Assembly: GCA_001724855.1 (NCBI GenBank)
Contig: MEED01000018.1
Span: 27,703 to 91,702, forward strand
DNA length: 64,000 nt
Source of the DNA: Lautropia sp. SCN 69-89
GTDB lineage: Bacteria; Pseudomonadota; Gammaproteobacteria; Burkholderiales; Burkholderiaceae_E
Reading direction: 5' to 3'
Shown: piece after piece, positions 5,796 through 64,000 of the stretch
Layout: each line of letters opens with the position of its first letter
How positions within the stretch are numbered: the stretch's first letter is position 1
Made by a program: the position numbers and the translations under genes
Notes under the pieces: generated by a model
Told to the model about the DNA's origin: nothing
Database searches by the model: none
The model's input: the letters and a program-made list of their open reading frames with translations, nothing else

Positions 5796-8669
<2,874 letters not shown>

Positions 8670-8680
8670 CGCGGCCCCCG

Positions 8681-9679
8681 ATGCGCACCGGCCACGGCGC
8701 ACCGGTTCGCTCGCCCTGGCGCCGCGCGCTGCTCGGGGCAGTGGCCGGCGCGGCCGCGTGGCCCGGCGCGTTTGCCCAGCGCGACTATCCGAACCGCGCG
8801 ATCACGCTGGTCGTGCCGTTCGCGCCCGGCGGCATCGCCGACCTCACCGCGCGCGTGGTCGCGCGCTCGATGGGCAGCGCGCTCGGGCAGTCCATCGTGA
8901 TCGACAACCGGCCGAGCGCGGGCGGAATCGTCGCGACCAGCGCGGTGGTCAATGCCGCGCCCGACGGCTACACCGCGCTCATGCTGAGCAATGCGAACGC
9001 GATCAGCGCCAGCCTGTTCCGCAAGCTGCCGTTCGACGTGACGCGCGATCTCGCACCGGTCGGCACGATCGGCTTCTTCGACCTGGTGCTCTGCGTCGAC
9101 TGGGGCTCGCGCTTCCGGACCTTGCCCGACCTGCTCGCGTGGACCCGCGCGAATCCCGGGAAGCTCACGATCGGCACGATCGCGATCGGATCGACGCAGC
9201 ACCTGGCGGCCGAATTGTTCGCGTCGCGCGCCGGCGTCGACGCGGTGATCGTGCCGTACAAGGCAACGCCGGCGGTGCTCACCGCGCTGCGCGGCGGCGA
9301 GATCGACCTGGCGTTCGAGATCCTCGGCCCCGCGTTGCCGCAGATCGCGGGCGGCGCGCTGCGGCCGCTGGCGGTCAGCGCCGCGCGCCGGAATCGCGTG
9401 CTGCCGACCACGCCGACGGTGCAGGAGGCCGGCGTCGCGGACTACGACGTGGCGTCATGGAACGCGCTGGCGGTGCCCGTCGCGACGCCGCAGCCGATCG
9501 TCGCCCGGCTGAACGCCGCGATCCGCGATGCGCTCGCGGTGCCCGCGGTCGCGCAGCGGCTGCTCGAGATGGGCGTTCGCCCGCAGGCCGGCACGCCGGC
9601 CGAGCTCGAGGCGCTGCTGGCCAGCGAGATCGGGCGCTGGCGTGAGGTGATTCGCGCGGCCCGCATCGAGCCACAGTGA
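8681..9679 (+). CDS. Bug/TctC-family tripartite tricarboxylate transporter substrate-binding protein
   Basis: YPNRAITLVVPFAPGGIAD, DNRPSAGG, APDGYT, VPYKAT, PTVQEAG; signal peptide. Confidence 0.92.
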   Translation: MRTGHGAPVRSPWRRALLGAVAGAAAWPGAFAQRDYPNRAITLVVPFAPGGIADLTARVVARSMGSALGQSIVIDNRPSAGGIVATSAVVNAAPDGYTALMLSNANAISASLFRKLPFDVTRDLAPVGTIGFFDLVLCVDWGSRFRTLPDLLAWTRANPGKLTIGTIAIGSTQHLAAELFASRAGVDAVIVPYKATPAVLTALRGGEIDLAFEILGPALPQIAGGALRPLAVSAARRNRVLPTTPTVQEAGVADYDVASWNALAVPVATPQPIVARLNAAIRDALAVPAVAQRLLEMGVRPQAGTPAELEALLASEIGRWREVIRAARIEPQ

Positions 9680-9700
9680 CTCGAGCGGCCGCGACTCGTT

Positions 9701-10070
9701 CCGCGCCTCGGCGATTGACCACCCTGTTCCACTGGTCGACGATCGCGGTGCGGTTGGCGGCGTAGTGGTCCCAGTCGACGCGCCTGAGCCTGTCGGCGGT
9801 CGGTACCGTTTCCACGACCTCCTTCGGCACCGCGGCCGTCGAGTTCACCGGCCGTCCGCCTCCTGCGCGCGACCAGGCCTCCCGGGCCGGCACGCTCAGC
9901 ATGTGGTTGATGAACGCCTCGGGTGCTGCGCCCGCGCTGGCGTTCTTCACGCGCGTGATGTTCATCGACACGGCATACGCGCCCTCGGCCGGGATGGCAA
10001 AGCGCAGGTCCGCGAGATCGGGGGCCTTCCTCATGGCGAGGATGTTTCCGCTGAAGTATGGCGTGGCCCT
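9701..10070 (-). pseudogene. 3' remnant of a PotD/PotF-like ABC transporter substrate-binding protein
   Basis: About 120 codons reading FAIPAEGA..TRVKNA..EAFINHMLS..RPVN..VDWDHYAANRTAIVDQWNR; no N-terminal two-thirds; CGA where a stop would be expected after VNR. Confidence 0.7.
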
Positions 10071-17015: not shown

Positions 17016-17444
17016 TCAGTCTCCGTAGAGCTTCTGCCGCAGTTCGCGGCGCTGCTGCGCCTCGAGCGAAAGCGTGGCGGTGGGTCGCGCCAGCAGGCGC
17101 GGAATGCCGATCGGCTCGCCGGTTTCCTCGCAGTAGCCGTATTCGCCGCTTTCGATGCGCGCGAGCGATTGCTGGACCTTCTTCAGCAGCTTGCGCTCGC
17201 GGTCACGGGTGCGCAGCTCGAGCGCGTGCTCTTCCTCGATCGTCGCGCGATCGGCAGGATCGGGCACGATCACCGTTTCGCGCAGGTGCTCGGTGGTCTC
17301 GTCGGCATTGGCCAGCAGGTCTTTTTCCATCTGCTGCAGGCGCACACGGAAGAACGCGAGCTGCGCGTCGTTCATGTAGTCCGAGTCGGGCATCTGGAGC
17401 AGTTCCGCCTCGGTCAGGGGTTTCTTGTCCTTCGTTGCTGCCAT
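17016..17444 (-). CDS. dksA: RNA polymerase-binding protein DksA (single-Cys, zinc-independent type)
   Basis: Coiled-coil tip DPAD, ELRTRDRERKL, YGYCEETGEPIG..RPTATLSLEAQ. Confidence 0.95.
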   Translation of the reverse strand: MAATKDKKPLTEAELLQMPDSDYMNDAQLAFFRVRLQQMEKDLLANADETTEHLRETVIVPDPADRATIEEEHALELRTRDRERKLLKKVQQSLARIESGEYGYCEETGEPIGIPRLLARPTATLSLEAQQRRELRQKLYGD

Positions 17445-17528
17445 GGCCTCAATACCTGTGCGCTCGCCGGGCGCTGCCTTCGGGAAATGCCTGGGTGGAA
17501 CGGACCGCGTCGCGCCGCCAGCGGCGGA

Positions 17529-18506
17529 TCATGCCAGACACTGCTCCAGGCCCTTGATGAAGGTGTCCTTCGGAAGGTTCCTTCCGATGAAGACCATCCT
17601 GCTCGACCGCCTTTCGGCGGGCTTCCAGCGTCGGCCGGCGTCGGCGCCCATCATCATGTGGACGCCCTGGAACACCGTCTGCCGGTCGGACCCCTTCATG
17701 TAAAGCACGCCTTTATACCTCAACATGTCGGGGCCGTAAACCTGAATCAGGCCGGAAAGGAAATCCTCGAGTTTCAGCGGGTCGAACGGCTTGTCGGAGC
17801 GGAACACGAAGGACTGCACCGCGTCGTCGTGCTCGTGCTCGTCGCTTTCGAGGAAGGTCGGGTCGATCTCGAGCACCGCATTCAGGTTGAAGCCGCGGAT
17901 GTCCAGGATCTCGGCAATCGGCGCGTCGCCGAAGTGCACCGGACGCACCGGCGCGCGCGGGTTCATCCGGCGCAGGCGCGCCTGCAGGCGCTCGCGCGTC
18001 GGCTCGTCGACCAGGTCGACCTTCGACATCAGGATGCGGTCGGCGAAGCCGACCTGTTCCTGCGCTTCCTTGTGCTCGTCGAGCTGGCGTTCGCCGTGGC
18101 GCGCGTCGACGACGGTGATCACTGCGTCGAGCAGGTAGTAGTCGGCGATGTCGTCGTCGATGAAGAAGGTCTGTGCCACCGGCCCCGGATCGGCCATTCC
18201 GGTGGTCTCGATCATCACCCGCTCGAAGCCGATCTCGCCGCGATCGCGGCGCTCGCGCAGCTCGCCCAGGATGCGCACCAGGTCGCCGCGCACGGTGCAG
18301 CAGATGCAGCCGTTGTTCATTTCGACGATCTGCTCGTCGCGCTCCTGCAGCAGCAGGTCGTTGTCGACGCCCTCCTCGCCGAACTCGTTCTCGATCACCG
18401 CGATGCGGTGGCCGTGCTGTTCCTCGAGGATACGGTTGAGCAGCGTGGTCTTGCCGCTGCCCAGGAAGCCGGTGAGGATGGTCACCGGAACGTGCGTGTC
18501 GGCCAT
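17529..18506 (-). CDS. COG0523/CobW-family GTPase (metallochaperone)
   Basis: GFLGSGKTT, ENEFG, GCICC, ETTGMADP, LRYKG; short HEH tract. Confidence 0.93.
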   Translation of the reverse strand: MADTHVPVTILTGFLGSGKTTLLNRILEEQHGHRIAVIENEFGEEGVDNDLLLQERDEQIVEMNNGCICCTVRGDLVRILGELRERRDRGEIGFERVMIETTGMADPGPVAQTFFIDDDIADYYLLDAVITVVDARHGERQLDEHKEAQEQVGFADRILMSKVDLVDEPTRERLQARLRRMNPRAPVRPVHFGDAPIAEILDIRGFNLNAVLEIDPTFLESDEHEHDDAVQSFVFRSDKPFDPLKLEDFLSGLIQVYGPDMLRYKGVLYMKGSDRQTVFQGVHMMMGADAGRRWKPAERRSSRMVFIGRNLPKDTFIKGLEQCLA

Positions 18507-18579
18507 GTCGATCCCTCTCTGGACCGCGCATTCTACGGGCGCTGCGCCCGTCGTGCCCGGAACGGGGGTATGCCCGCCG

Positions 18580-19596
18580 TCAGGATCCGCCGCGCCGCCT
18601 GGCGCGCGGGTGCGCGGCATCGTAGACCGCGGCCAGCCGCTGGAAATCGAGCGAGGTGTACACCTGGGTCGTCGCGATGCTCGCGTGCCCGAGCAGTTCC
18701 TGCACCGCGCGCAGGTCGCCGCTCGACTGCAGCAGGTGGCTGGCGAACGAATGCCGCAGCACGTGCGGATGCACGTCGGCCGGCACGCCCCGGACGATCG
18801 CGAGCCGCTTCAGCCGTGCCTGCACCGTGCGGTTCGCGAGCCGGCGCCCCCGGCCGCTCAGGAACAGCGCCCGCTCGTCGCAGCCCGGGCGCAGCGCGCA
18901 CCAGGCGGCACGCTCGCCGAGCCAGCGCCGCAGCGCCTCGCGCGCCGCGCCTCCGATCGGCACGGTGCGGCTGCGCCCGCCCTTGCCGCGCACCGTCAGC
19001 TCGGCCTCGTCGAGGTCGATCCAGCCGGTGGAGGCGGCAGGCGGGCCATCGAAGTGGCGCAGGTCGAGCGACGTGAGCTCGGACAGCCGCAGGCCCGACG
19101 AATAGAAGAGCTCGAGCATCGCCTGGTCACGCGCGGCCTCGAAGCCGTCGCCCGGCTCGGCACCGGCGAAGCGCACGGCGACGTCGGGCGCCAGCGCCTT
19201 GGGCAGGCGGCGCGCCGCGCGCGGCGCGCGCACGCCGCGCGCCGGGTTCGCGACCGCCTCGCCCTGGCTGGCGAGCCAGTCGAAGAAGCCGCGCCAGGCC
19301 GACAGACGGCGGGCGATCGAGCGCGCCGACAGCCCGGCGCGGGCATTCGCGGCCACCCAGCGGCGCACGTGGTGCTCGTTCACCGATGACCAGTCGGGTT
19401 CGGCCGGCGCCGGCGGCGCGCCCGACTCGGCGGCGCGCGACCCCGTGGCCGCCGGCAGCACCGCGGCGGCCGCCTCCCTCAGCGCCAGGTCGGCCAGCGC
19501 GCGCAGGTCGAGTCGGTAGCTGGCCAGCGTTCGCGGCGAGCAGCCGCGCTCGCTGCGCAGCCGCTCGAGGTAGCGCGCAATCGCGTCGCCGGCCAA
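18580..19596 (-). CDS. xerC: Tyrosine recombinase XerC
   Basis: RDQAMLELFYSSGLRLSEL, VRGKG, HPHVLRHSFASH, LGHASIATTQVY; dapF-DUF484-xerC order; TTG start inferred. Confidence 0.92.
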   Translation of the reverse strand: MAGDAIARYLERLRSERGCSPRTLASYRLDLRALADLALREAAAAVLPAATGSRAAESGAPPAPAEPDWSSVNEHHVRRWVAANARAGLSARSIARRLSAWRGFFDWLASQGEAVANPARGVRAPRAARRLPKALAPDVAVRFAGAEPGDGFEAARDQAMLELFYSSGLRLSELTSLDLRHFDGPPAASTGWIDLDEAELTVRGKGGRSRTVPIGGAAREALRRWLGERAAWCALRPGCDERALFLSGRGRRLANRTVQARLKRLAIVRGVPADVHPHVLRHSFASHLLQSSGDLRAVQELLGHASIATTQVYTSLDFQRLAAVYDAAHPRARRRGGS

Positions 19597-19603
19597 CGCA
19601 GGC

Positions 19604-20278
19604 TCATTCAGCCAGTCGCGACAGCGCCGCGCTGGCGGTTTCGGCGATCCGCTCGAGGAAAGCGGTGCCCATGCCGGAACGGAAGCGATCGGGATCGGCC
19701 GAGCCGAGCACGACCAGGCCGAAGGCGTTCGGGTCGACGCCCTTGCGCAGCGGCAGCAGCGCGATCGAGCGCGTGTCGGCACCCCCGTCGGGGAGCCAGG
19801 AAGCCGCCTGGAAATCGGAGTTCGGGCCGCAGAACGGCTGCATCATGCTGTTGGCCAGCGTGATCACGTCCACCGGCACCGGTTGCGCGCAATCGAGTTC
19901 GTGGTACGCGTCGCGCAGCGCCCACAGCCGCATCGCAACCTGCGGTACCGAGAACACGGTGCGCAGGCCGTCGACCACGATGCCGGGCAGTTGCGCCGGG
20001 TCGGCCGCCAGCAGCAGCTGGCGGGTCCAGCGTTGCAGCTTTTCGCCGATCGCGTCGTTTTCCTGGCCGATGCGCAGCAGCTCGGCCAGCCTCATCTCGT
20101 GCGCGCGAAGCTTCTCGCGCAGCACCTCGAGCTGGCGCTCGTGCAGCGAGATCGCCCGCCCGCCGTGCGGGTGCGGCACGGTGATCGCCGCGAGCAGCTC
20201 GGCGTGCGTTTCGAAGAAACCGGGGTTGTTGCGCAGGTAGCGCGCCACCTCGTCGGCGCCGATGGTGCTGTCGGTCAT
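19604..20278 (-). CDS. DUF484 (YigA-like) family protein
   Basis: [36 protein letters not shown]; between dapF and xerC. Confidence 0.9.
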
Positions 20279-21171
20279 GCGTGATCCGTGAAGGAAAGAG
20301 CCTGTATCGCCGGCGACGCATCGGCCGGCACGTCGATCTGGCCGTCGAAGACGGTTTCGGCCGGCCCGGTCATCTGCACGGCGGCGCCGTCCCAGGCGAC
20401 CGTGAGAATTCCGCCGCGCGTCTGCACCTGCACCGGCGAGCGCAGCAGCCCGCGGCGGATGCCGGCGACCGCCGCCGCGCAGGCGCCGGTCCCGCAGGCG
20501 AGCGTCTCGCCGACGCCGCGCTCCCAGACGCGCAGCCGGATCCGCGACGGCGCGAGCACCTGTAGGTAGCCGGCGTTCACGCGGCGCGGAAAACGCGCCG
20601 CGCCCTCGATGAGCGGGCCCTCGCTGCGCACCGGCGCGCGCTCGACGTCGTCGACCACCTGCACCGCGTGCGGGTTGCCCATCGAGACCAGCGACACCCA
20701 GCGCCGCTCGCCGCCGACCTCGAGCGGCCAGAGCAGGTCGTCGCCGAGGCGCCGCGGCTCGAGTGCGCTGGCGTCGAACGGAATCGCCCCGGGGTCGAAT
20801 GCCGGCGCACCCATGTCGACCGTGACGCGCCCGTCGTCCTCGAGACGCGGCTCGATCACGCCGCCCATCGTCTCGACGCGGATCGCGCGCTTGTCGGTGA
20901 GCCCCTGGTCGCGCACGAAGCGAACGAAGCAACGCGCGCCATTGCCGCACTGCTCGACCTCGCCGCCGTCGGCGTTGAAGATCCGGTAGCGGAAATCGAC
21001 GCCGGCGGCGTCGGCGGGCTCGACCAGCAGCAGCTGGTCCGCGCCGATGCCGAAGTGCCGGTCGGCCAGGAAGCGCCATTGCGCCGGCGACAGGCGCACC
21101 GACTGGCGCACGCCGTCGATCACGACGAAGTCGTTGCCGGCGCCGTGCATCTTCGTGAAGCGCAATTTCAT
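20275..21171 (-). CDS. dapF: Diaminopimelate epimerase
   Basis: [39 protein letters not shown]. Confidence 0.98.
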
Positions 21172-21182
21172 CGGGGCGATTA

Positions 21183-22070
21183 TCACCGATACGGCTTCGC
21201 CTCGCCGGGCGGACGCGTCTTGAAGCGCTTGTGGCTCCACAGGTATTGCGCCGGCATCTCGAGCACGCGCTCCTCGATGAACGCGTTCATCCGCCGCGTC
21301 GCCGCTTCCAGGTCGTCGCCGGGAAAGTCTTCCCAGGCGGGATAGAAGCGCGCGACGTAACCGTCGTCAGCCATCGTGGTGACCAGCGGCACGACCGTCG
21401 CGCCGGTGATGCGCGCGAGCCGCGCCACCGAAGTGACCGTCGCGGCGGGCACGCCGAAGAAGGGCACGAACACCGCGTCGCGCGCGCCCAGGTCCATGTC
21501 GGGCAGGAAATAGAACGGCATGCCTTCGCGCAACGCCTTCACCGCGGGGCGCAGGCCCTCGGTGCGCAGCAGCATGCGCCCGTCGTTGAAACGCATGCGC
21601 CCGCGCGTCATCGCCTCGGTGAGCGCGCGGCTCTTCTGCGCCGCGTACATCGACGCGCAGCGCGCCTCCAGCGACAGGCGCATGCCGCCCGCGTCGATGC
21701 CGACGAAGTGCGGTGCAAGCAGGATCAGCGGTCGACCGAGGTGCTGCTCGAAATGCTCGACGCCCTCGAGTCGGCACAGCCGGCGGATTCGCTGCGGCGA
21801 CCCGTGCCAGAAGACGAAGCGCTCGAAGAAGCTGCGCATGAAATAGCGGAAATGCCCGCGCGCCACGGCGCGGCGCTGCGCTTCGCTCCATTGCGGAAAG
21901 CACAGCCGCAGGTTGGTGCGCGCCACGCGCCGCCGCGGCACCGCGAGCAGCCAGGCGAGCGCGCCGGCCAGCTCGCCGATCCGGCGCACCACCGGGTAGG
22001 GCAGCAGCGCGATGCCACGCAACAGCAGCAGCGCGAACCTGACGAACGGCTCCGACACCCGGATCCTCAA
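21183..22070 (-). CDS. Lipid A biosynthesis acyltransferase (LpxL/HtrB family)
   Basis: [30 protein letters not shown]; TTG start overlapping upstream stop inferred. Confidence 0.9.
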
Positions 22071-22939
22071 TCGGGCGCGCCCGCCGCCGCGGGTCGCTTG
22101 TAGCGGTTGTAGCCCCACAGGTACTGGGACGGAAAGCGCCGGATCAGCGCCTCCATCCGCGCGTTCAGCGCCTCGGGAGTGGGAGGTTCGTCCATTCGTT
22201 CGAGATGCAGGCGCCAGCCGCGGGCGCCGCCGAGCCGCTCGCCGACCGCCAGCACCACCTGTGCGCCGGGCTGCTCGGCCAGCCGCTGCGGCAGTGTCAT
22301 CGTCCAGGCGGGCCGGCCGAAGAACGGCACCCAGCGGCCCTCGCCCGCTCCGGGGACCTGGTCGGGCAGCAGGCCCACCGCTTCCCCGGCGCGCAGCGCG
22401 CGCAGCATCGCCCGCACGCCGGCGAGCGTCGCCGGCACCGCGCGCATCGAGCCGGTCGCGCGCGAGAACTCGACCAGCGGGCGCATCCAGGCCTTCCTGG
22501 GGGGCTTGTAGAGCACGGTGATCGGCGCGCGGCTGGCATAGAAGCGCGCGGTGACCTCGAAGGCGCCCAGGTGCGGCGTGAGGAACACGATTCCGCCGCG
22601 CGCCTCGGCGGCGTCGAGGATCTGCAGGTCGTCGCAGACGACGTGCCGGGCCAGATCGGCCGGCGCGCGACGCCAGACGAAGGGCAGTTCGCCGACCATC
22701 CGCCCGGCCTCGGCCGCGGCGCTCCAGGCGTCGGCCGTCGAGTCATAGCCGGCAGTGCGCAGGTTCGCGAGGAGCTTGCGCCGATAGCCGGCCGACAGCA
22801 GGTACGCCGCGAGACCGAGCGCCGCACCGAATGCTCGCAGAAACCGGAGCGGCAAGGCGCCCAGCATCCGCATGGCCGCGACCAGCGCGCGGCTGCTCGA
22901 GCTGTCAGGCTGGTCTGGGCGTACGGATTCCACGGACAT
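22067..22939 (-). CDS. Second lipid A/lysophospholipid acyltransferase (LpxL-like)
   Basis: PHLGAFE, LPDQVP, VPFFG, PSQYLWGYNRYK. Confidence 0.9.
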   Translation of the reverse strand: MSVESVRPDQPDSSSSRALVAAMRMLGALPLRFLRAFGAALGLAAYLLSAGYRRKLLANLRTAGYDSTADAWSAAAEAGRMVGELPFVWRRAPADLARHVVCDDLQILDAAEARGGIVFLTPHLGAFEVTARFYASRAPITVLYKPPRKAWMRPLVEFSRATGSMRAVPATLAGVRAMLRALRAGEAVGLLPDQVPGAGEGRWVPFFGRPAWTMTLPQRLAEQPGAQVVLAVGERLGGARGWRLHLERMDEPPTPEALNARMEALIRRFPSQYLWGYNRYKRPAAAGAPD

Positions 22940-23064
22940 CGGTTCTCGGCCAGGCGCGGCCCCGCTCCGGACGGGTCGGCGCGGATGCGCGGGGGCGCGG
23001 CGCGAGTCTATGCGATCCGGGAAAGTTCGACATCAGGGTCGCCCGCGCAGCGAAAACCGGACTA

Positions 23065-23070
23065 TATAAT
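23065..23070 (+). promoter_or_regulatory. Sigma70 -10 box (TATAAT) upstream of metK
   Basis: Exact consensus hexamer about 80 nt before metK in GC-rich DNA; no canonical -35 seen. Confidence 0.6.
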
Positions 23071-23147
23071 CCGGTCGCCCCCCTCTTTCGCGGCGGGGTG
23101 GTCCCGTTGGCCTGCGTCCCCGCGGTCGCCCTGACAGGAGAGAAGAG

Positions 23148-24311
23148 TTGGCAAACGAATTTCTGTTCACCTCCGAATCGGTCTCCGAGGGCCACCCGGA
23201 CAAGGTCGCCGACCAGATCTCGGACGCCATCCTCGACGCCATCCTCGCGCAGGATCCACGTTCGCGGGTGGCGGCCGAAACGCTGTGCAACACCGGACTG
23301 GTGGTGCTGGCCGGCGAGATCACCAGCAAGGCCAACGTCGACTACATCCACGTCGCGCGCGACACGCTCAAGCGCATCGGCTACGACAACACCGAATACG
23401 GCATCGACTACAAGGGCTGCGCGGTGCTGGTCGCCTACGACAAGCAGTCGCCCGACATCGCGCAAGGCGTCGACAAGGCCGGCGACGACAACCTCGACCA
23501 GGGTGCCGGCGACCAGGGGCTGATGTTCGGCTATGCCTGCGACGAGACGCCCGACCTGATGCCGGCCGCGATCTACTACGCGCACCGGCTCGTCGAGCGC
23601 CAGTCCGAGTTGCGCCGCAACGGCACGCTGCCCTGGCTGCGGCCCGACGCCAAGTCGCAGGTCACGCTGCGCTACGCCGACGGACGGCCGGTGGCCGCCG
23701 ACACCGTCGTCATCTCGACGCAGCACGCTCCCGAGATGACCCAGCAGCAGATCCGCGACGCGGTCATCGAGCACATCATCGAACCGGTGATCCCGCCCGG
23801 GCTGCGCAAGGGCGAGGTGCGCTACCTGGTCAACCCCACCGGCCGCTTCGTGGTCGGCGGGCCGCAGGGCGACTGCGGCCTCACCGGGCGCAAGATCATC
23901 GTCGACACCTACGGCGGCGCCGCTCCCCACGGCGGCGGCGCGTTCTCGGGCAAGGATCCTTCGAAGGTCGACCGCTCGGCCGCCTACGCCGCCCGCTACG
24001 TCGCCAAGAACATCGTCGCGGCCGGGCTGGCCAGCAAGTGCCTGGTACAGATCTCGTATGCGATCGGCATCGCGCGTCCGACCTCGGTGATGGTCACCAC
24101 GCAGGGCACCGGGCGCATCAGCGACGAGAAGCTGGCCGCGCTCGTCTCGAAACACTTCGACCTGCGGCCCAAGGGCATCGTGCAGATGCTGGACCTGCTG
24201 CGCCCGATCTACCAGAAGACCGCGTCCTACGGCCATTTCGGCCGCGACGATCCCGACTTCACCTGGGAGCGCACCGACAAGGCCGCTGCCCTGCGCGCCG
24301 ACGCGGGCTGA
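23148..24311 (+). CDS. metK: S-adenosylmethionine synthetase
   Basis: [34 protein letters not shown]. Confidence 0.99.
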
Positions 24312-24472
24312 GCCTCGTCAACGCGCCGGGGCAGTCGGCAGCGAGCCGGGCCTGCGCCTTTGCTCGCGGAAACATTCTGTCCGGTGCACTTCGCGGATTG
24401 CGCCGGGCGCCGCTTGGGGAGCGGCTGACCGGGATCAACCCGCCCGGCGGCCGGTGCTGTTCCAATGCCGGC

Positions 24473-24928
24473 ATGTATCCGGTCCTGCATGCCGTCTCGC
24501 GCCTGATGGAGTGCCCGCGGCCCGACAACCGCGGGCTGTCGGCCGACGTCACCGAGGCCCTGGCCGGCGAGCCGCGACTGTCGATGGCCACGCGCCTGGG
24601 ACTGGTGGCGCTGGCCAGCCACATCGAGGCCGGCGATCCCGGCGAATGCGCGCGCCGCTGGCTGCGCTCGTTTCGCGCCACGCCCGAAAGCTCGCTGCAC
24701 CTGCGCGACCATCCGGGCGGCAGCCTGCGCGCGCGCGAGCTGCCCGATGGCTACCTGCCGGGGCTGCTCGAGACGCTGTCGCACGACGACGAGCTGCACG
24801 CGATCGAGATGCTGATCGTCTGCGCGCCGGCGCTGCGCGAGATGGCCGAGGCGCTGGCGCGCAAGCGCGATCCCTACGCGCTGCTGCCGGTGGCATTGCT
24901 CGAGTTGCTCGCGTCGCGGCTGCACTGA
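24473..24928 (+). CDS. Hypothetical protein (151 aa)
   Basis: Host-like GC3-rich codons filling the metK-pdxH gap; no family motif recognised. Confidence 0.55.
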   Translation: MYPVLHAVSRLMECPRPDNRGLSADVTEALAGEPRLSMATRLGLVALASHIEAGDPGECARRWLRSFRATPESSLHLRDHPGGSLRARELPDGYLPGLLETLSHDDELHAIEMLIVCAPALREMAEALARKRDPYALLPVALLELLASRLH

Positions 24929-24965
24929 TAACGCGCCCTGCCCGGGCACGTGGCGCGCCGCCCCC

Positions 24966-25604
24966 TCAGGGCGCGAGCCGCTGCCGCGCCCAGCCGCCGT
25001 CGGTGCCACGCCGGTAGGCGATCCGGTCGTGCAGCCTCGACGGACGCCCCTGCCAGAACTCCCAGTAGTCGGGCGCCAGCCGGAAGCCGCCCCAGTGCGG
25101 CGGGCGCGGCGGGTGCAGGCCGAACTTCAGCCCGAACTCGGCGGCGCGCGCCACCAGCGCGGCCCGCGAAGACAGCGGGCGGCTCTGCTCCGAGGCCCAG
25201 GCGCCGATCCGCGAGGCGAGCGGACGCGAGGCGTAATAGGCGTCGGACTCGGCCGCATCGACGCGCGCGACCTGCCCTTCGATGCGCACCACGCGCTCGA
25301 GCTCGACCCAGTGAAACTGCAGCGCGGCCACCGGATGGACCGCGAGCTCGCGCCCCTTGCGGCTCTCGTAGTTCGTGTACCAGACGATGCCGCGCGCGTC
25401 GAACTCCTTGATCAGCACCACCCGCGTCGAGGGCCGGCCGTTCTCGCCCACCGTCGCGACCGTCATCGCGTTGGGCTCGGGCAACTCCGCCTTCAGCGCC
25501 TGGTCGAACCAGACCCGGAACTGTTCGAGCGGGTCGGCGTGCGCGTGGCTCTCGTCGAGCTCGCCGCGCTCGTAGCTCTTGCGCAGATCCGCGATCCTGG
25601 ACAT
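24966..25604 (-). CDS. pdxH: Pyridoxamine 5'-phosphate oxidase
   Basis: [28 protein letters not shown]. Confidence 0.97.
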
Positions 25605-57250: not shown

Positions 57251-59592
57251 CGAACGCCGGCAGGCTCTGGAACCGCTTCGTGATGAACCCCCGGGGCTGG
57301 TGGCTGCCGCTGCTCGCGGTGCTCGCGATCGGCGTGGGCAGCATGCTGTACATGGGCACGCGCACCTACCTCGATGCGCCACCGGTGCCCGACTTCGTCG
57401 ACGAGCGCGGCGTCGCGGTGGTACCGGCCGCAGCAATCACGCGCGGGCAGGCGGTGTTCCTGAAGTACGGGCTGATGAACTACGGCAGCATGTTCGGCGA
57501 CGGCGCCGGACGCGGCCCCGACTTCACCGCCGACGCGCTGCACCAGATGGCGCGCGCGATGCGCGACCATCATGCGTCCGCCGACGGCGTCGACGTCGAT
57601 TCCGCGCTCGCCGCCGCGCAGCGCGAGATCAAGCGCAATCGCCACGATGCGCTCACCGACACGGTCACCGTCGGCGCGGCGCAGGCCTATGCCGCGCGCG
57701 AGATCGAGCGTCGCGTGGCCGCGATGTTCCGCGGCGAGGGCAGCGAAGCCTTCCACCCTGCCGGCTTCATCGCCGACGAAGCCGAACTGCGCGACCTCGC
57801 GGCCTTCTTCTTCTGGGGAGCGTGGGTCTGCGGCGTCGAGCGGCCCGGCAAGGCCTACAGCTACACGCACAACTGGCCGTACGACGAGCTGGCCGGCAAC
57901 CGGCCGAGCGCGCAGGTCATGCTGTGGAGCGTGATCGCGGTGCTCGCGCTGGTGGCCGCGCTCGGCGCGGTGCTGTTCCTGTACGGCCGCTACGCGTCGA
58001 TCGCCGGATGGCGTCCCGCGCAGCGCGGCGACGCGTTCCCGCAGGCGGGAGCGATGGCCAGCGCCGCGGCGGTCGATGCGCTGCGCCCCGGCGCGCTGCA
58101 GCGCGCGACCTACAAGTTCTTCGCTGCCGCCGCGGTGCTGTTCGTGCTGCAGGTCGCCGCCGGCATCCTGACGGTGCACGACTTCCTCGGCATCACCCGG
58201 GTGTTCGGCGTCGATCTCGCGCAGGCGCTGCCGATCCCGGTGGTCCGCGGCTGGCACCTGCAGCTCGCGCTGCTGTGGATCACCGCCTGCTGGGTCGGCG
58301 CGTCGATCTTCGTCGTGTCGACGGCGGCGCCTCGGGCACCGGCCGGACAACTGAGGCTGGTCCAGCGGCTGTTCGGCCTGTTCGTCTTCACCGCGGTCGG
58401 CGGGCTGGCCGGTGTCGCGCTCGGGCCGCACGGGCTGCTCGGCGACTGGTGGCACCTGCTCGGCAGCCAGGGTTGGGAGTTCGTCGAACAGGGCAGGCTC
58501 TGGCAGGCGCTGCTGTTCGCGGTGTTCGCGCTGTGGTGCCTGGTGCTCGCACGTGCGGTGCGGCCGATCTGGCATTCGGGCGATGCGTGGATGCTGCCGA
58601 AGTGGCTGCTCTACTGCGTCGCCTGCGTGCTGGTGCTGTTCGTCTCCGGGTTCGTCGCAACCCCGCAGACCAACTTCGTGGTCGCCGATTTCTGGCGCTG
58701 GGCGGTGATCCACATGTGGGTCGAGGCGTTCTTCGAAGTCTTCACCACCGCGGTGCTCGCGTACTTCATGGTGCTGATGGGACTGGTGAGCCACCCCGCG
58801 GCCTCGCGCATCGTCTATCTCGCAGCCCTGCTGTTCCTCGGTTCGGGCCTGCTCGGCATCTCGCACAACTTCTACTGGAACGCCAAGCCGGTCGAGACGC
58901 TGGCGATCGGCAGCGTGTTTTCGACGCTGCAGGTCGTGCCGCTGATCCTGCTCACGCTCGAAGCCTGGCAATTCCGCAACGCGCCGCAGCGCGCGAACGC
59001 CGCTGGCGGCTTCGGCCAGTCGGAGGCGTTCCTGTTCCTGCTCGGCGTGAATGTCTGGAACTTCCTGGGCGCCGGCATGTTCGGCTTCATGATCAACCTG
59101 CCGATCGTCAACTACTACGAGCACGGGACCTACCTGACGGTGAACCACGGCCACGCCGCGCTGATGGGCGTCTACGGCAACCTCGCGATCGCGACGATCG
59201 TCTTCTGCGCGCGCTGCCTCATCGAGCCCGCCCGCTGGAACGCCGCGCTGCTGCGCCGCGTGTTCTGGTCGCTCAACGTCGGCCTGCTGCTGATGATCGT
59301 CGCCGACCTGTTTCCGGTGGGCATCGCGCAACTGCTCGACGTGCTCGAAAACGGCTTCTGGCACGCACGCTCGCAGGCGTTCATCGGCAGCGACCTGTTC
59401 CAGGCGCTCACCTGGGCCCGCATCGTCGGCGGTGCGCTGTTCGTGCTCGGCGGCGTGCTGCCGCTGGCCTGGTTCGTCGTGACTCGTGCGGCCGCACTGA
59501 AGGCGCCGCGTCCCGAGCCAGCCGAGGACGCGGCGACCCGCACTGCGCCGGGCGCGGACGCGCTGCCGTTGGCCGAGGGCCCGCGCGCCTGA
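57247..59592 (+). CDS. qNOR-related heme-copper-oxidase superfamily protein with Nod-type (putative NO dismutase) active-site substitutions
   Basis: qNOR architecture (GPDFTAD, WHLQL, HMWVEAFFE, TVNHGH); SHNFYW instead of HH, TLQVVP instead of E, YTHNWP, RIVGG instead of R..GD. Confidence 0.85.
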   Translation: MTNAGRLWNRFVMNPRGWWLPLLAVLAIGVGSMLYMGTRTYLDAPPVPDFVDERGVAVVPAAAITRGQAVFLKYGLMNYGSMFGDGAGRGPDFTADALHQMARAMRDHHASADGVDVDSALAAAQREIKRNRHDALTDTVTVGAAQAYAAREIERRVAAMFRGEGSEAFHPAGFIADEAELRDLAAFFFWGAWVCGVERPGKAYSYTHNWPYDELAGNRPSAQVMLWSVIAVLALVAALGAVLFLYGRYASIAGWRPAQRGDAFPQAGAMASAAAVDALRPGALQRATYKFFAAAAVLFVLQVAAGILTVHDFLGITRVFGVDLAQALPIPVVRGWHLQLALLWITACWVGASIFVVSTAAPRAPAGQLRLVQRLFGLFVFTAVGGLAGVALGPHGLLGDWWHLLGSQGWEFVEQGRLWQALLFAVFALWCLVLARAVRPIWHSGDAWMLPKWLLYCVACVLVLFVSGFVATPQTNFVVADFWRWAVIHMWVEAFFEVFTTAVLAYFMVLMGLVSHPAASRIVYLAALLFLGSGLLGISHNFYWNAKPVETLAIGSVFSTLQVVPLILLTLEAWQFRNAPQRANAAGGFGQSEAFLFLLGVNVWNFLGAGMFGFMINLPIVNYYEHGTYLTVNHGHAALMGVYGNLAIATIVFCARCLIEPARWNAALLRRVFWSLNVGLLLMIVADLFPVGIAQLLDVLENGFWHARSQAFIGSDLFQALTWARIVGGALFVLGGVLPLAWFVVTRAAALKAPRPEPAEDAATRTAPGADALPLAEGPRA

Positions 59593-59604
59593 AGCCTGCG
59601 TTGC

Positions 59605-60963
59605 TCAGGCGCCGCAGCTGACGAGCGCCGCCTCCAGCGCGTCGACGATCAGGTCGATTTCCGGCCGCTGGATCACCAGCGGCGGCGACAGGATCAGGTT
59701 GCCGCCGGAGACGCGGACCATCGCGCCGTTGCGGAAGGTCTGCGCGGCCACCGCCGCGGGCAGTGCCGCCTTGCGGTCGAGCGGCGTGCGCTTCTCCTTG
59801 TCGGCCACCAGCTCGACGCAGGCCATCAGCCCGATGCCGCGCACGTTGCCCACGGCGCGGAACTTCTGCTCGAACGGCTTCAGCCGCGACATCAGGTATT
59901 CGCCCTGCACGCGCGCGTTCTCCGGCACGTTCTCGCGCTCGACGATGTCGAGCGCCGCCAGCGCCGACGCGCAGGCCACCGGATGACCGCTGTAGGTGTA
60001 GCCGTGCATGAGGGCGCCGCTGCCCGTCTGGTCGCTGAGGAACGCGTCGGCGATGCGCGCCGACACCGCGGTCGCGCCCAGCGGCACGTAGCCCGAGTTG
60101 ATGCCCTTGGCCAGGCACATGATGTCGGGCTGCACGCCCCAGAGCCGCGAGCCGAACATCGAGCCGGTGCGGCCGAAGCCGGTCACCACTTCGTCGGCGA
60201 TCAGCAGCACGCCGTGCGCGTCGCAGACCTTGCGCACCAGCGGCCAGAAGTTCGGAGGCGGCACGATCACGCCGCCGGCACCCTGCACCGGCTCGGCGAT
60301 GAACGCCGCGACCGTGTCGGGACCCTGGAAGCGGATCTCGCGATCGAGCAGCTCGGCGCAGATCTCGCCGAGCCGCTGCGGGTCGTCGGTGTAGGGGTTG
60401 CGGTAGTCCCACGGCGTGTCGACGTGGAAGCACCCCGGGAGCAACGGCTCGTAGGCGCGCCGGAACGCGGTGTTGCCGTTCACCGACATGCCGCCGAAGT
60501 GCACGCCGTGGTAGCCCTGCTTGAGCGCGATGAACTTGTGGCGGTCGGCCTGGCCCATCAACTTCCAGTACTGGCGCGCGATCTTCAGCGCGCCCTCCAC
60601 CGCGTCGGAGCCGCCGCTGGAGAACGCGACGCGCGCCATGCCCTCGGGCTGCAGCATCCCGATCAGCCGCACCGACAGCTCGATCGCGCGCGGATGCGTG
60701 GTGCCGCGAAAGCACGAATAGAACGCGAGCTCGTCGAGCTGCTCGACGATCGCCCGCTTGATCTCCTCGCGCCCGTAGCCGAGGTTGATGTTCCACAGGC
60801 CCCCCACGCCGTCGACCACGCGATGGCCGTCGACGTCGGTGACCCAGACGCCGTCGCCGCGGGCCACGATGATCGGGGGCTGTTCCTGCATCTGGCGCGG
60901 GTGCGCCATCGGGTGCAGCATGAAGCGCGCGTTGTGCGCGCGCAGCTCGTCCGGGCCGGTCAT
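59605..60963 (-). CDS. Class III PLP-dependent aminotransferase-family protein
   Basis: DGVGGLWN, YHG, AEPVQGAGG, DEVVTGFGRTG, LAKGINSGY. Confidence 0.93.
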   Translation of the reverse strand: MTGPDELRAHNARFMLHPMAHPRQMQEQPPIIVARGDGVWVTDVDGHRVVDGVGGLWNINLGYGREEIKRAIVEQLDELAFYSCFRGTTHPRAIELSVRLIGMLQPEGMARVAFSSGGSDAVEGALKIARQYWKLMGQADRHKFIALKQGYHGVHFGGMSVNGNTAFRRAYEPLLPGCFHVDTPWDYRNPYTDDPQRLGEICAELLDREIRFQGPDTVAAFIAEPVQGAGGVIVPPPNFWPLVRKVCDAHGVLLIADEVVTGFGRTGSMFGSRLWGVQPDIMCLAKGINSGYVPLGATAVSARIADAFLSDQTGSGALMHGYTYSGHPVACASALAALDIVERENVPENARVQGEYLMSRLKPFEQKFRAVGNVRGIGLMACVELVADKEKRTPLDRKAALPAAVAAQTFRNGAMVRVSGGNLILSPPLVIQRPEIDLIVDALEAALVSCGA

Positions 60964-61673
60964 GAGAGTTCTCCGGGAGCGGGGCCGTCGATGCCGAGCC
61001 GGGCGCGCACGCGTGCGAAGCTGCCTTCGGGATCGGCGAGGTCGAAGAAGATGGCGTCCATGCCCACCGCGCGCGCGCCCTCGACGTTGCGCGGCTGGTC
61101 GTCGACGAACACCGCACGCGCCGCGGGCACGCCGAGCGCCTCGAGCGCGGCACGGTAGGCGCGCGGATCGGGCTTGAGCACGCCGGTGTACGTGGCGTCG
61201 ACCAGCACGTCGATCTCGCGCAACAGCTCGAGCCGGTCCATGAACGGCCGGCCCCAGAAGAGCTCGAGCTCGTTCGAGACGATGCCCACCCGCAGGCCCG
61301 CGGCGCGCGCCGCCGCGATCGTGCGCCGCGCGCATTCGCGCACCGCCCGGTTCGGGTCGTCGCCGCGGATCGCCTTGAAGAAGTCGAGCGGCGTCCATGC
61401 ATCGTGGCCGAGCATGCGGCCGACTTCGGCCGCGCGCTGCGCCCAGTAGTCGCGCTCGCTGATCGCGCCGGCGGTCATGCTGCGCCAGAGCGGATCGGTG
61501 TCGGGGTCGACCGGCCCGAGCCAGCCGAGCGTGCCGGGCGCCAGGCCGAGGATCGTCTCGATCTCGCGCTGCCGCTCGAAGGCCGAGATCGTGATCACGC
61601 TGCCGAAGTCGAGCAGCAGCGCGTCGAACAGGCGCTCTCCGACCCGATGGGCGCGCGCTTCGGGGGCGTTCAT
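60960..61673 (-). CDS. HAD-superfamily hydrolase (IA type)
   Basis: Motif I DFGSV, motif II SN, LKPDP, motif IV FVDD. Confidence 0.88.
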   Translation of the reverse strand: MNAPEARAHRVGERLFDALLLDFGSVITISAFERQREIETILGLAPGTLGWLGPVDPDTDPLWRSMTAGAISERDYWAQRAAEVGRMLGHDAWTPLDFFKAIRGDDPNRAVRECARRTIAAARAAGLRVGIVSNELELFWGRPFMDRLELLREIDVLVDATYTGVLKPDPRAYRAALEALGVPAARAVFVDDQPRNVEGARAVGMDAIFFDLADPEGSFARVRARLGIDGPAPGELS

Positions 61674-62743
61674 GTCATCCTGGCTCCATAACGCAGTGCG
61701 TAGCGCACCGGGTCCCATTGCGGCGGATCGGTCGGGCCGGCGCCGGCCGCGGTCACCGGTCGCGCCTGCACCAGCACGATCGTGTCGCCTTCGCGGCGCC
61801 CGCGCTGCAGCACCCATTCGATGTCCACGGGGTAGCCGTAGTGCGCCTCGACCGCAACGGCGCTGCGTGCGATCGCCGCGATCTCGTCGTCGTCGAGCAC
61901 GCGCGCGGCTGCGAACGCGGGCGGCATCGGACGCTCGACGACCGCGCCGCGCCGATAATCCATCACCGAGATCACCGTCTTGTCGGCGACCCGGTAATCG
62001 AGCAATTCGAAGCCGTCCTTGTCGAGTTCGGCGTGGTCCGGCACGACCAGCCCGCCGACCACCGCCTCGCCGTATCCCCAGGAGCCCTCGACCACCACGC
62101 GGTCGCGCCGTCCGGTGAGCGGATGCACCGAGAACGCGACGCCGGCAGCGCGCGCGCGCACCAGCTCGAGCACCCCCACGGCCATCGGCATCGCCGCGGC
62201 ACCAAGCCCGGACTGCGCGCGGTAGCCGATCGCGCGCGCCGAGAACAGGCTCGACCAGGCGCGCCGGATGCTGTCGTCGACCGCGTCGAGCCCCGAGACG
62301 CCGAGGAAGGTTTCGTACTGGCCGGCGAAGCTGTGGTCGGCCGCATCCTCGCCGACCGCCGAGCTGCGAACCGCCACCGGCTTGTCGACTTCACGCACCT
62401 CGAAGCACAGCGCATCGTAGGCGCGCTCGAAGCACGCGCGCATCGCCTCGGGCAACGGCTGCGCGGCGAAGCGCCCGCGGATGCGCGACGACACGGTTTC
62501 GAGCCGATCGAGATCGCTGCCGTCGCCGATCGAGGTGAGTTCGGCGGCGATCGCGGTCTCGAGCCGCGTCTCGCGCACGAAGTGCAGGTAGGCCTCGACC
62601 GTCACCGCGTATCCGGTGGGCACCTGGAATCCCGCCCGCCGCAGCTCGGCGAGCCGCGCCAGCTTCGGGCCGACGATTTCGGCGTTCGCGGCGGCCGGCT
62701 CGGCCATCGCGACCACCCACGGGCTGGCGGCGGCGCCTGTCAT
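61670..62743 (-). CDS. Stand-alone PEP/pyruvate-binding (PPDK N-terminal ATP-grasp) protein, PpsB-like
   Basis: VGPKLARL..GFQVP, AVRSSAVGED..SFAGQYETFL, DIEW, VQARPVT; no His-carrier domain. Confidence 0.9.
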   Translation of the reverse strand: MTGAAASPWVVAMAEPAAANAEIVGPKLARLAELRRAGFQVPTGYAVTVEAYLHFVRETRLETAIAAELTSIGDGSDLDRLETVSSRIRGRFAAQPLPEAMRACFERAYDALCFEVREVDKPVAVRSSAVGEDAADHSFAGQYETFLGVSGLDAVDDSIRRAWSSLFSARAIGYRAQSGLGAAAMPMAVGVLELVRARAAGVAFSVHPLTGRRDRVVVEGSWGYGEAVVGGLVVPDHAELDKDGFELLDYRVADKTVISVMDYRRGAVVERPMPPAFAAARVLDDDEIAAIARSAVAVEAHYGYPVDIEWVLQRGRREGDTIVLVQARPVTAAGAGPTDPPQWDPVRYALRYGARMT

Positions 62744-62746
62744 CGC

Positions 62747-64000
62747 TCAGGCCGCCTTCAGCACGGTGACCGTGCCCGCGCTGCCGTCGACGTCGACCAG
62801 GTCGCCGTCGGCGATCACGCGCGTGGCCACCGCGGTGCCGACCACGCAGGGCACGCGGTATTCGCGGCTGATGATCGACGCGTGCGCCAGCGTGCCGCCC
62901 TGGTCGCACACACAAGCGGCGATCTTGGTGAAGGCCGGCGTCCAGCTCGGCGAGGTGCCTTCGCAGACCAGCACCTCGCCGGCCTGCACGCGGTGCAGGT
63001 CCTGCGGCCCGTGCAGCACGCGGGCGCGCCCGCTCGCCCGGCCGGGCGCCGCGCCGAGCCCGCGCAGCCGCTCGCCGGGCGCCGCGCCGACGCGCACCGC
63101 CGCGAGGAACTCGTCGGTTACGCCGTCGATCTCGATCAGGATCGGATCGCTGATCGATTCGGGCGCCGCGCCGAGGTACTTCGGCATCGTCTTGCGGCAT
63201 TCGCGCCAGGACGCGTGATACGCGCGCCGCGCGTCGATCAGCGCATCGAACGAAGCGATCGGCTCGCCGCGGGCGACCCGCAGCAGCTCGGGGTAGAAGA
63301 GGAAGAACACGTCGTCGGGATGGCGCCCGGGCGTGCGCGCGCCGATCGCGAGCGCCGCGCGCCGCAGCGGAATCGTCGCGCGCAGGTCGATGTAGTGGTT
63401 GTGGTCTTCGTTCCACCAGACGAAGTTGGCGCGCTCGCAGCTGGCCAGCGCCGCGTCGAACGCCCGGCGCTCGGCCCGGGTGAGTCGCGCGCGGGCCGTC
63501 GCGATCGCGGCGCCACGCTCGGCGCGCGCCTCGTCGATGCCGGCGTCGAAATCGTGGCCTTCGCCCCGCTCGAGCAGGAAGGTTCGGATGTTGCCCAGCG
63601 GCGTGGTCGGATTCTCGCGCCAGCAAGGGAGCATCGGATCGGCCATTCCGTCGGTGCGCCACCCCCACTCGTCGAGGAACGCACCGAAGCGCGCGAGCCA
63701 GCGCGCACCCTCGGCACCCGCCCCGGCGAGCGCCGCAGCGATCGACTCGGGCGGGTTCTCGACGAACGCGGCGGCAAGCGGCTTGCCGCGCAGCTCGTGC
63801 GCGAAACCCCACAGCGCGCGGTCGCAACGCGTCATCGGCGTCTCGTAACCCTGCAGGAAGCGCGGCACCTCGGCCCGCGCGATCCCGAGTTCGTCGCACA
63901 GCCCGTAGAAGCCCGCCTGGTTCAGCAGCAGCGGGTACATCAGCTCGAAGTGCACCTCCCAGGCGCGGCGCTGGAAGGCACGCGCCCGCTCGAGGTAGTC
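62747..64000 (-). CDS. PEP-utilising mobile-domain protein, PpsA-like (5' end beyond window)
   Basis: C-terminal swivel domain GGTLAHASIISREYRVPCVVG..VDVDGSAGTV preceded by a helical domain; frame open to the window edge. Confidence 0.88.
   Translation of the reverse strand, partial: DYLERARAFQRRAWEVHFELMYPLLLNQAGFYGLCDELGIARAEVPRFLQGYETPMTRCDRALWGFAHELRGKPLAAAFVENPPESIAAALAGAGAEGARWLARFGAFLDEWGWRTDGMADPMLPCWRENPTTPLGNIRTFLLERGEGHDFDAGIDEARAERGAAIATARARLTRAERRAFDAALASCERANFVWWNEDHNHYIDLRATIPLRRAALAIGARTPGRHPDDVFFLFYPELLRVARGEPIASFDALIDARRAYHASWRECRKTMPKYLGAAPESISDPILIEIDGVTDEFLAAVRVGAAPGERLRGLGAAPGRASGRARVLHGPQDLHRVQAGEVLVCEGTSPSWTPAFTKIAACVCDQGGTLAHASIISREYRVPCVVGTAVATRVIADGDLVDVDGSAGTVTVLKAA

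Follow-up and report, generated by a model that had tools for sequence, protein, structure and literature searches.

What does a two-subunit phosphotransferase do in an operon with a phosphatase and a transaminase? This question is raised by four genes on the minus strand of a 64,000-nucleotide stretch of DNA from Lautropia sp. SCN 69-89 (genome G000, contig C18, positions 27703 to 91702), which we call the window. Two of the genes encode the presumed subunits of a small-molecule dikinase, here named KinA and KinB, and the other two a HAD-IA hydrolase and a class III aminotransferase. On balance, we lean towards the view that the operon is a catabolic module in which an amine with a hydroxyl group, most probably phenolic, is phosphorylated, transformed and dephosphorylated. 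Genes were defined by GC3-guided open reading frame (ORF) calling together with protein family scans. The contig continues 18 kb past the window end, and the sequence upstream of KinA could therefore be read as well.

Organization of the operon

The operon consists of the following genes, at window positions:

62747 to 64000, minus strand: KinA, a helical domain like that of rifampin phosphotransferase (RPH) plus a phospho-His swivel, 574 aa; truncated where the window ends, with the complete gene running to 64471 in extended numbering (C18 positions 90449 to 92173)
61670 to 62743, minus strand: KinB, a stand-alone ATP-grasp protein, 357 aa (PF01326 PPDK_N, E=1.3e-88)
60960 to 61673, minus strand: HAD-IA hydrolase, 237 aa (PF00702, E=2.5e-16; PF13419)
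59605 to 60963, minus strand: class III (omega-)aminotransferase, 452 aa, at the end of the operon (PF00202, E=2.7e-96)

The contig sequence confirmed that this four-gene operon is real. KinA and KinB are 3 nt apart, ATGA overlaps join KinB to the HAD gene and the HAD gene to the aminotransferase gene, and the four genes are tightly coupled translationally. A first-pass annotation, made from the sequence of the window, had described just such an adjacent pair of swivel and ATP-grasp genes, followed with overlapping junctions by a HAD hydrolase and a class III pyridoxal phosphate (PLP) enzyme, and this description held in every part. The same was true of its statement that the carboxylation genes of phenol activation are missing from the locus: no CBS/PpsC or UbiD gene was found in the operon or in the ~18 kb upstream.

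KinA and KinB as a probable two-component dikinase

The swivel domain of KinA (PF00391) spans residues 496-566 (E=2e-21) and contains the motif GGTLAH530ASIISRE; the motif GGTLAHASIISRE is present in this protein. Close relatives of KinA share the Pfam pair PF27448 Rph_4th plus PF00391 PEP-utilizers. In KinB, the PPDK_N match covers 314 of the 328 profile positions. The first-pass annotation had noted that a pyruvate-binding TIM barrel is missing, and indeed the Pfam scan gave no match to PF02896, the phosphoenolpyruvate (PEP)/pyruvate TIM barrel, in either protein.

The AlphaFold2 model of KinA, obtained with a 19-sequence family alignment, had a pLDDT of 91.5 and a pTM of 0.91. Its only full-length match in the PDB was the Listeria rifampin phosphotransferase 5HV1 (TMq 0.66, 581 columns, 20% identity), and pyruvate phosphate dikinase (PPDK), PEP synthase, pyruvate kinase and Enzyme I aligned with the ~120-residue swivel only. 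Residues G525, G526 and H530 are invariant in the KinA family alignment. The published motif of two-component dikinases is T/SxxGGxxxH, placed within about 50 residues of the C terminus and without a regulatory Thr at His-2. KinA departs from it at the first position only, with a cysteine (Cys522, conserved in at least 90% of the clade), and has a leucine two residues before the histidine.

The pair combines an adjacent, separate ATP-grasp subunit with an RPH-like domain that carries a C-terminal swivel and no TIM barrel, as two-component dikinases do; domains and fold alike agree with the PpsA/PpsB (split RPH) architecture that the first-pass annotation had proposed. Judged by sequence and predicted fold, KinA appears to correspond to CreH, HpeH and PpsA, as the subunit of a two-component small-molecule dikinase that binds the substrate and carries the phospho-His swivel, and KinB to CreI, HpeI and PpsB, as the nucleotide-binding subunit. 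A scan of one genome per species gave 352 KinA relatives, and 80 loci were kept for neighbourhood counts. The pairing of the two proteins is not due to chance, because KinB immediately follows KinA in 62 of these 80 loci, which come from many phyla; it is present in 71.

The fold might also suggest a xenobiotic- or antibiotic-inactivating phosphotransferase, that is, a split RPH, or a central enzyme resembling PEP synthase, and KinB does score 256-264 bits on PEP synthase models. These scores are, however, a fraction of what the models demand. Against the rifampin phosphotransferase model NF041857 (cut-off 999), KinA reached 110 and KinB 198 bits, and against the PEP synthase model TIGR01418 (cut-off 739.75) KinB reached 256 and KinA 88; RPH, PigC/RedH and PEP synthase models all left both proteins far under their cut-offs. 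Further counter-evidence comes from the missing TIM barrel, from a true PEP synthase on contig C14 (1170 bits against the same cut-off of 739.75), and from the phosphatase in the operon, which would reverse a resistance modification. We regard this explanation as extremely improbable, and PEP synthase as the identity of KinAB was rejected on the score, the missing barrel and the enzyme on C14. Phenylphosphate synthase was likewise rejected: the locus has no carboxylase, all five PRK08296 NCBIfam models stayed far under their cut-offs (best 194 bits against 578), and a canonical-looking cluster for phenol activation lies on contig C22.

The KinA family and its neighbourhoods

KinA and KinB appear to belong to a deep, uncharacterised clade. 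As a stand-in for the characterised H subunits we used the genome's own canonical PpsA-like protein on C22, to which KinA is 26% identical; HpeH, CreH and PpsA themselves are ~45% identical to each other in pairwise comparison (PMC12167813). In a collection of 5.8 billion proteins, about 80 cluster representatives were at least 37% identical to KinA, after which identity fell sharply to 28%.

The HAD-IA hydrolase recurs with the kinase. An orthologue was present in 38 of the 80 KinA loci, and outside the own genus in 30 of 70, at 38-51% identity. Loci with this hydrolase occur in Myxococcota, Marinimicrobia, Alpha- and Gammaproteobacteria and many Actinomycetota, and nine loci have a NagD-type HAD in its place, like the Hpe and Acv clusters. 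The co-occurrence of kinase and HAD phosphatase mirrors the logic proven for HpeHI/HpeD and AcvAB/AcvF.

Among the other neighbours, the commonest were IclR, a MetE-like protein, LigXa-type Rieske oxygenases and their reductases, extradiol dioxygenases and DmpFG, together with short-chain dehydrogenases/reductases (SDRs), aldehyde dehydrogenases (ALDHs) and ABC transporters. By their gene content, the neighbourhoods of the family outside the transaminase-linked clade thus point to aromatic catabolism, and the contexts of individual metagenomic relatives are consistent with this. Among the 80 loci (L012-L091), those outside that clade also showed KinA-KinB pairs with a histidine-phosphatase or HAD and meta-cleavage genes, mainly in Actinomycetota. 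Four loci (L036, L071, L080 and L082) have a second dikinase pair, ~30% identical, within 10 kb.

The HAD hydrolase and the transaminase

The HAD protein is predicted to be the phosphatase of the pathway. Its best NCBIfam match was TIGR02247, named "epoxide hydrolase N-terminal domain-like phosphatase", and it matched phosphoglycolate phosphatase models weakly, under their cut-offs. The alignment of orthologues retains the Asp nucleophile D22, K167 and D190-D191; in all aligned sequences that cover motif I, this motif is DxGxV, with Gly at position Asp+2. E. coli YihX is among the PDB matches of this protein; we take this active phosphatase to share the DxGxV variant.

The transaminase scored 749 bits on NF005683 (cut-off 575), which places it in the PRK07481 subfamily, and it has the full-length fold of PF00202 (323 bits). 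Among solved structures it comes closest to two amine:pyruvate omega-transaminases, the Pseudomonas fluorescens enzyme 6S54 (E=2.5e-166; PMC6813460) and 5LH9.

Two pathways that combine such enzymes were considered and rejected. An amino-alcohol kinase with a phospho-lyase does not fit a PLP enzyme that falls in the omega-transaminase subfamily NF005683, with amine:pyruvate transaminases as its nearest structures. The 2-aminoethylphosphonate/phosphonatase pathway, which also uses a transaminase, a HAD enzyme and an ALDH, does not fit a HAD protein without a PhnX match and an aminotransferase of class III.

The transaminase-linked subclade

A transaminase 57-97% identical to that of Lautropia follows the HAD gene only in Burkholderiaceae metagenome-assembled genomes (MAGs) of the own genus, in two Rhodospirillaceae MAGs and in one Rhodobiaceae genome. 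These loci are nearly always accompanied by a MarR gene. The order KinA-KinB-HAD-transaminase(-MarR) is common to beta- and alpha-proteobacteria, although KinA identity across the two classes is only 47%. In a maximum-likelihood tree, whose outgroup consisted of the canonical PpsA-like gene on C22 and of second copies from actinobacteria, the transaminase-linked KinA proteins form one clade (SH-aLRT 99), which also takes in short contigs that end before the transaminase position and two other proteobacterial loci. Fixed in this clade and rare elsewhere are the substitutions H49R, R83N, V101Q, M214T, V432Y, F449D and N509S (window ~62950-64325, minus strand); F449D puts an acidic residue in place of a Phe that is 94% conserved. 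The conserved synteny with a transaminase supports the link to an amine-bearing substrate that the first-pass annotation had drawn.

These data bear on whether all four genes serve one substrate. It could instead be that the kinase and the HAD protein act on a phenol and the transaminase on a separate amine, the two being joined by a shared downstream pathway or regulon. Most KinA-KinB-HAD trios have no transaminase, as this would predict, and HpeHI-type kinases are promiscuous, accepting phenolic aldehydes and ketones (PMC12167813). Separate substrates are nevertheless hard to reconcile with the 4-nt overlap of the HAD and transaminase genes, with the monophyly of transaminase-linked KinA and the gene order kept across two proteobacterial classes despite their divergence, or with the substitutions, such as F449D, that this KinA has for itself. 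We therefore consider the arrangement quite unlikely and favour a single pathway for a hydroxylated amine.

The alpha-proteobacterial loci have an additional feature:

L026 positions 7646 to 9822 and L077 positions 7627 to 9824, divergent from KinA: a second class III transaminase (PRK07046 subfamily, 601 bits; nearest PDB entry 5YKR) and an SDR

A role of this second enzyme as a beta-phenylalanine or beta-tyrosine transaminase found no support, its nearest PDB entry being 5YKR and the beta-phenylalanine aminotransferase 4AO9 matching only at E=1.6e-32.

The module behaves as a patchy accessory cassette. In the GTDB family of the Lautropia genome it occurs in 11 of 172 genomes, all from the own genus (1 of 26 genera), and the KinA family is missing from about 20 further genomes of this genus. 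A tblastn search of the PLSDB plasmids gave no KinA-family member, only partial matches of 29-40% identity.

Divergent upstream genes and candidate regulation

Beyond the window end, the following features lie upstream of KinA:

C18 positions 92227 to 92240 and 92348 to 92361 (extended window positions 64525 to 64538 and 64646 to 64659): two GTTG-N6-CAAC palindromes in the 235-bp divergent promoter region between KinA and the ALDH gene
C18 positions 92409 to 93893, divergent from KinA: ALDH, similar to succinate-semialdehyde dehydrogenase (SSADH), under the cut-off
C18 positions 93964 to 95346, divergent: APC-family permease, with a weak match to the ethanolamine permease model, under the cut-off
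C18 positions 95361 to 95897, divergent: MarR regulator, matching the HpaR and BilQ regulator models weakly

These genes were beyond the view of the first-pass annotation, which had advised that the upstream sequence be retrieved, and with an ALDH, a permease and a MarR regulator upstream of KinA the operon looks catabolic. The palindrome is a plausible candidate for the MarR operator. One or two copies occur within ~250 nt upstream of KinA at nearly all Burkholderiaceae loci, including those at 69-70% identity, and the total was 23 copies in 1.39 Mb of loci. At the loci of 69-70% identity, MarR stands upstream either alone or with the permease.

The direction of the pathway can be judged from the same genes. 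In a biosynthetic operon the transaminase would aminate a phosphorylated keto compound or aldehyde, giving a phospho-amine or an amine metabolite such as a signal or a secondary metabolite. Omega-transaminases are reversible, and the second transaminase and SDR of the alpha-proteobacterial loci would suit such a role. However, there are no biosynthetic core genes nearby, and a MarR repressor, an ALDH and an APC permease of the importer type form a layout typical of catabolism. A phosphatase within the operon argues for the removal of a tag, and the context of the KinA family is catabolic, which makes biosynthesis very unlikely in our view.

At its other end, the operon stands tail to tail with an aromatic-amine dehydrogenase operon on the plus strand, which ends with a gene for a Nod-like membrane enzyme. 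The stop codons of the transaminase gene and of this Nod-like gene are 12 nt apart (59592-59605), so there is no space for separate terminators of the two operons. The tail-to-tail arrangement recurs at L010, where KinA is 68% identical; the Nod-like gene is missing there.

Other dikinase and catabolic genes in the genome

Outside the window, the genome contains the canonical-looking cluster already mentioned:

Contig C22, positions 17069 to 25122 (L096): phenol activation cluster with PpsA-like, PpsB-like, carboxylase-like, UPF0261/MarK-like and MobR-type genes

Its PpsA-like gene matched NF006151 in two frames, with 501 and 157 bits; the frames overlap at ~C22:21440, and the split is apparently a frameshift or an assembly error. 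A partial ORF resembling the phenylphosphate carboxylase beta subunit scored 393 bits on TIGR02724, covering model positions 167-471 only, and the UPF0261/MarK-like protein was over the cut-off of NF002676 (567 bits). The cluster adjoins a divergent MobR-type sigma-54 phenol regulator.

The genome encodes PobA (690 bits), so a 4-hydroxybenzoate-type product could be used. The content of the genome fits such a product slightly better than 4-hydroxyphenylacetate, which is suggestive only.

A possible pathway and its substrate

How might the parts work together? The APC permease would possibly import a hydroxyl-bearing amine, most likely a phenolic one. KinB would bind ATP, and H530 of KinA would take the beta-phosphate and pass it to the hydroxyl of the substrate, bound in the RPH-like helical domain of KinA (ATP -> AMP + Pi + O-phospho-substrate). 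The transaminase would then turn the amino group into a carbonyl, which, in the own genus, the divergent ALDH may oxidise to the acid. Finally, the HAD-IA protein would strip the phosphate and free a hydroxy-aryl acid for central aromatic catabolism, with MarR presumably controlling both divergent units through the GTTG-N6-CAAC operators. The architecture, the fold, the invariant residues, the coupling of the genes and their conserved co-occurrence are shown by the analysis, whereas we infer the chemistry of the substrate, the sequence in which kinase and transaminase act, the persistence of the phosphate on the intermediates and the physiological role.

A more specific proposal is that the transaminase-linked subclade stands for a phosphate-protected route that has not been described before, with phenolic or hydroxy-heteroaromatic amines (4-hydroxybenzylamine, vanillylamine and tyramine, for instance) as substrates. 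The dikinase would first turn the amine into its O-aryl phosphate, the transaminase and the ALDH would be specific for phosphorylated compounds, and a dedicated HAD-IA protein with the DxGxV motif would act last. We put this forward tentatively.

Several points weigh against a phenolic amine pathway of this kind. A phenolic substrate is suggested by the context of other subclades, not by that of the transaminase-linked one. The clade is unassayed, and because of this, of the 26% identity to the PpsA-like protein and of the NCBIfam cut-offs, all of which were missed, specificity cannot be carried over from characterised enzymes. The pathway is not uniform either: the ALDH and the permease are limited to the own genus, and the alpha-proteobacterial loci have the second class III transaminase and SDR instead. 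With its DxGxV motif, the HAD protein appears to lack the usual general acid at Asp+2. An aerobic route from tyramine to 4-hydroxyphenylacetate is disfavoured by the genome, in which neither an HpaB-family hydroxylase nor homogentisate dioxygenase (HmgA) was found. Finally, RPH phosphorylates an aliphatic hydroxyl, a point that favours an amino alcohol as substrate.

The same module could indeed act on a non-aromatic amino alcohol or hydroxy-amine. Ethanolamine or aminopropanol, for example, would be O-phosphorylated and converted to a phospho-aldehyde and then to a phospho-acid (phosphoglycolate), which the HAD protein would dephosphorylate. The weak matches of the HAD protein to phosphoglycolate phosphatase and of the permease to ethanolamine permease, all under cut-offs, are in line with this, as is a transaminase-linked subclade without aromatic ring-cleavage neighbours. 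On the other hand, phenolic hydroxyls are the target of all characterised two-component members (PMC12167813), clusters for aromatic catabolism surround the genes of the wider KinA family, the operon is next to an aromatic amine dehydrogenase operon, and its MarR-type regulator has weak matches to HpaR and BilQ. An amino alcohol thus seems to us an unlikely substrate, if one to keep in mind, and a phenolic amine remains the substrate that we favour.

If this is true, the strategy of phosphate tagging would be extended from cresols and acetophenones to amines. The phosphate-protected route, if it holds, would for the first time combine PLP transamination with kinase/phosphatase tagging, and a large, deep clade of two-component dikinases resembling RPH would have its first known function. 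That clade is widespread and deep-branching, with 352 relatives in species-representative genomes and a conserved phosphatase type of its own. The compact four-gene cassette may yield selective phenol kinases and aryl-phosphate-accepting transaminases for biocatalysis, with a possible use in the upgrading of lignin- or amine-derived compounds.

Comparison with known systems

Transient phosphate tagging in aerobic aromatic catabolism has become known between 2016 and 2025, from three systems only. In PpsAB, CreHI and HpeHI, ATP is presented by the ATP-grasp subunit and the beta-phosphate goes to the swivel His while the gamma-phosphate leaves as Pi; the phospho-His in turn phosphorylates a phenolic hydroxyl held in the RPH-like domain (PMC12167813). 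CreHI initiates the aerobic catabolism of 4-cresol in Corynebacterium glutamicum (Du et al. 2016, J Biol Chem 291:6583, as cited in PMC9618137 and PMC12167813). HpeHI initiates that of acetovanillone and 4-hydroxyacetophenone in Rhodococcus rhodochrous GD02; its carboxylase HpeCBA accepts the phosphorylated compound only, after which the NagD-like HAD protein HpeD removes the phosphate (PMC9618137, PMC12167813). AcvAB and AcvF follow the same logic in Sphingobium sp. SYK-6 (10.1101/2022.04.28.489975).

The first-pass annotation had treated a split dikinase outside phenol carboxylation as something unusual. Its inferred link between phosphorylation and an amine-bearing substrate is a reasonable one; the novelty that it implied found no support, as CreHI, HpeHI and AcvAB are published aerobic systems with HAD phosphatases (PMC9618137, PMC12167813, 10.1101/2022.04.28.489975).

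The Cre system resembles KinAB in having a two-component dikinase with a swivel/substrate subunit and an ATP-grasp subunit. Its side-chain step is carried out by a cytochrome P450, whereas the Lautropia operon has a class III transaminase; the Lautropia phosphatase is a HAD-IA protein with a DxGxV motif, and KinA lies in a much deeper clade. In 2016, Du et al. are said to have described side-chain oxidation in the Cre pathway, which includes an aldehyde dehydrogenase step, as taking place on phosphorylated intermediates, with the phosphohydrolase acting last. The Hpe and Acv systems share with KinAB a split RPH-like kinase, a catalytic His near the C terminus and a HAD-superfamily phosphatase in the cluster. 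Their middle step, in contrast, is a biotin carboxylase and their phosphatase is of the NagD type (HAD-IIA), whereas the Lautropia operon has a transaminase (and an ALDH), a HAD-IA protein and no carboxylase. In addition, the published motif T/SxxGGxxxH has T/S where KinA has Cys522.

PpsABC of Thauera aromatica has the same two-subunit layout and a presumed transfer of the beta-phosphate via His, but it includes PpsC and a UbiD-type carboxylase, which the Lautropia locus does not have, and its PRK08296 models were not reached by KinAB. RPH of Listeria monocytogenes (5HV1, 5FBT) aligns with KinA over the full length and uses the same swivel mechanism; its ATP-grasp domain, however, is fused into the one polypeptide chain, whereas KinA and KinB are split, and identity is ~20%. 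A further parallel is found in the 3hpd cluster of Ensifer adhaerens HP1, where orf9 and orf10, a PEP-utiliser swivel and PPDK_N pair, are genetically required for 3-hydroxypyridine catabolism and work with a molybdenum hydroxylase, the product of the pair never having been detected (10.1101/2020.01.08.898148). By its description this pair is like KinA and KinB; the compound catabolised there is a hydroxylated N-heteroaromatic. Altogether, tagging by phosphorylation with a two-component dikinase outside carboxylation is an established logic, and what is new in Lautropia is the deep, unassayed dikinase clade, its HAD-IA partner and a transaminase as the middle step.

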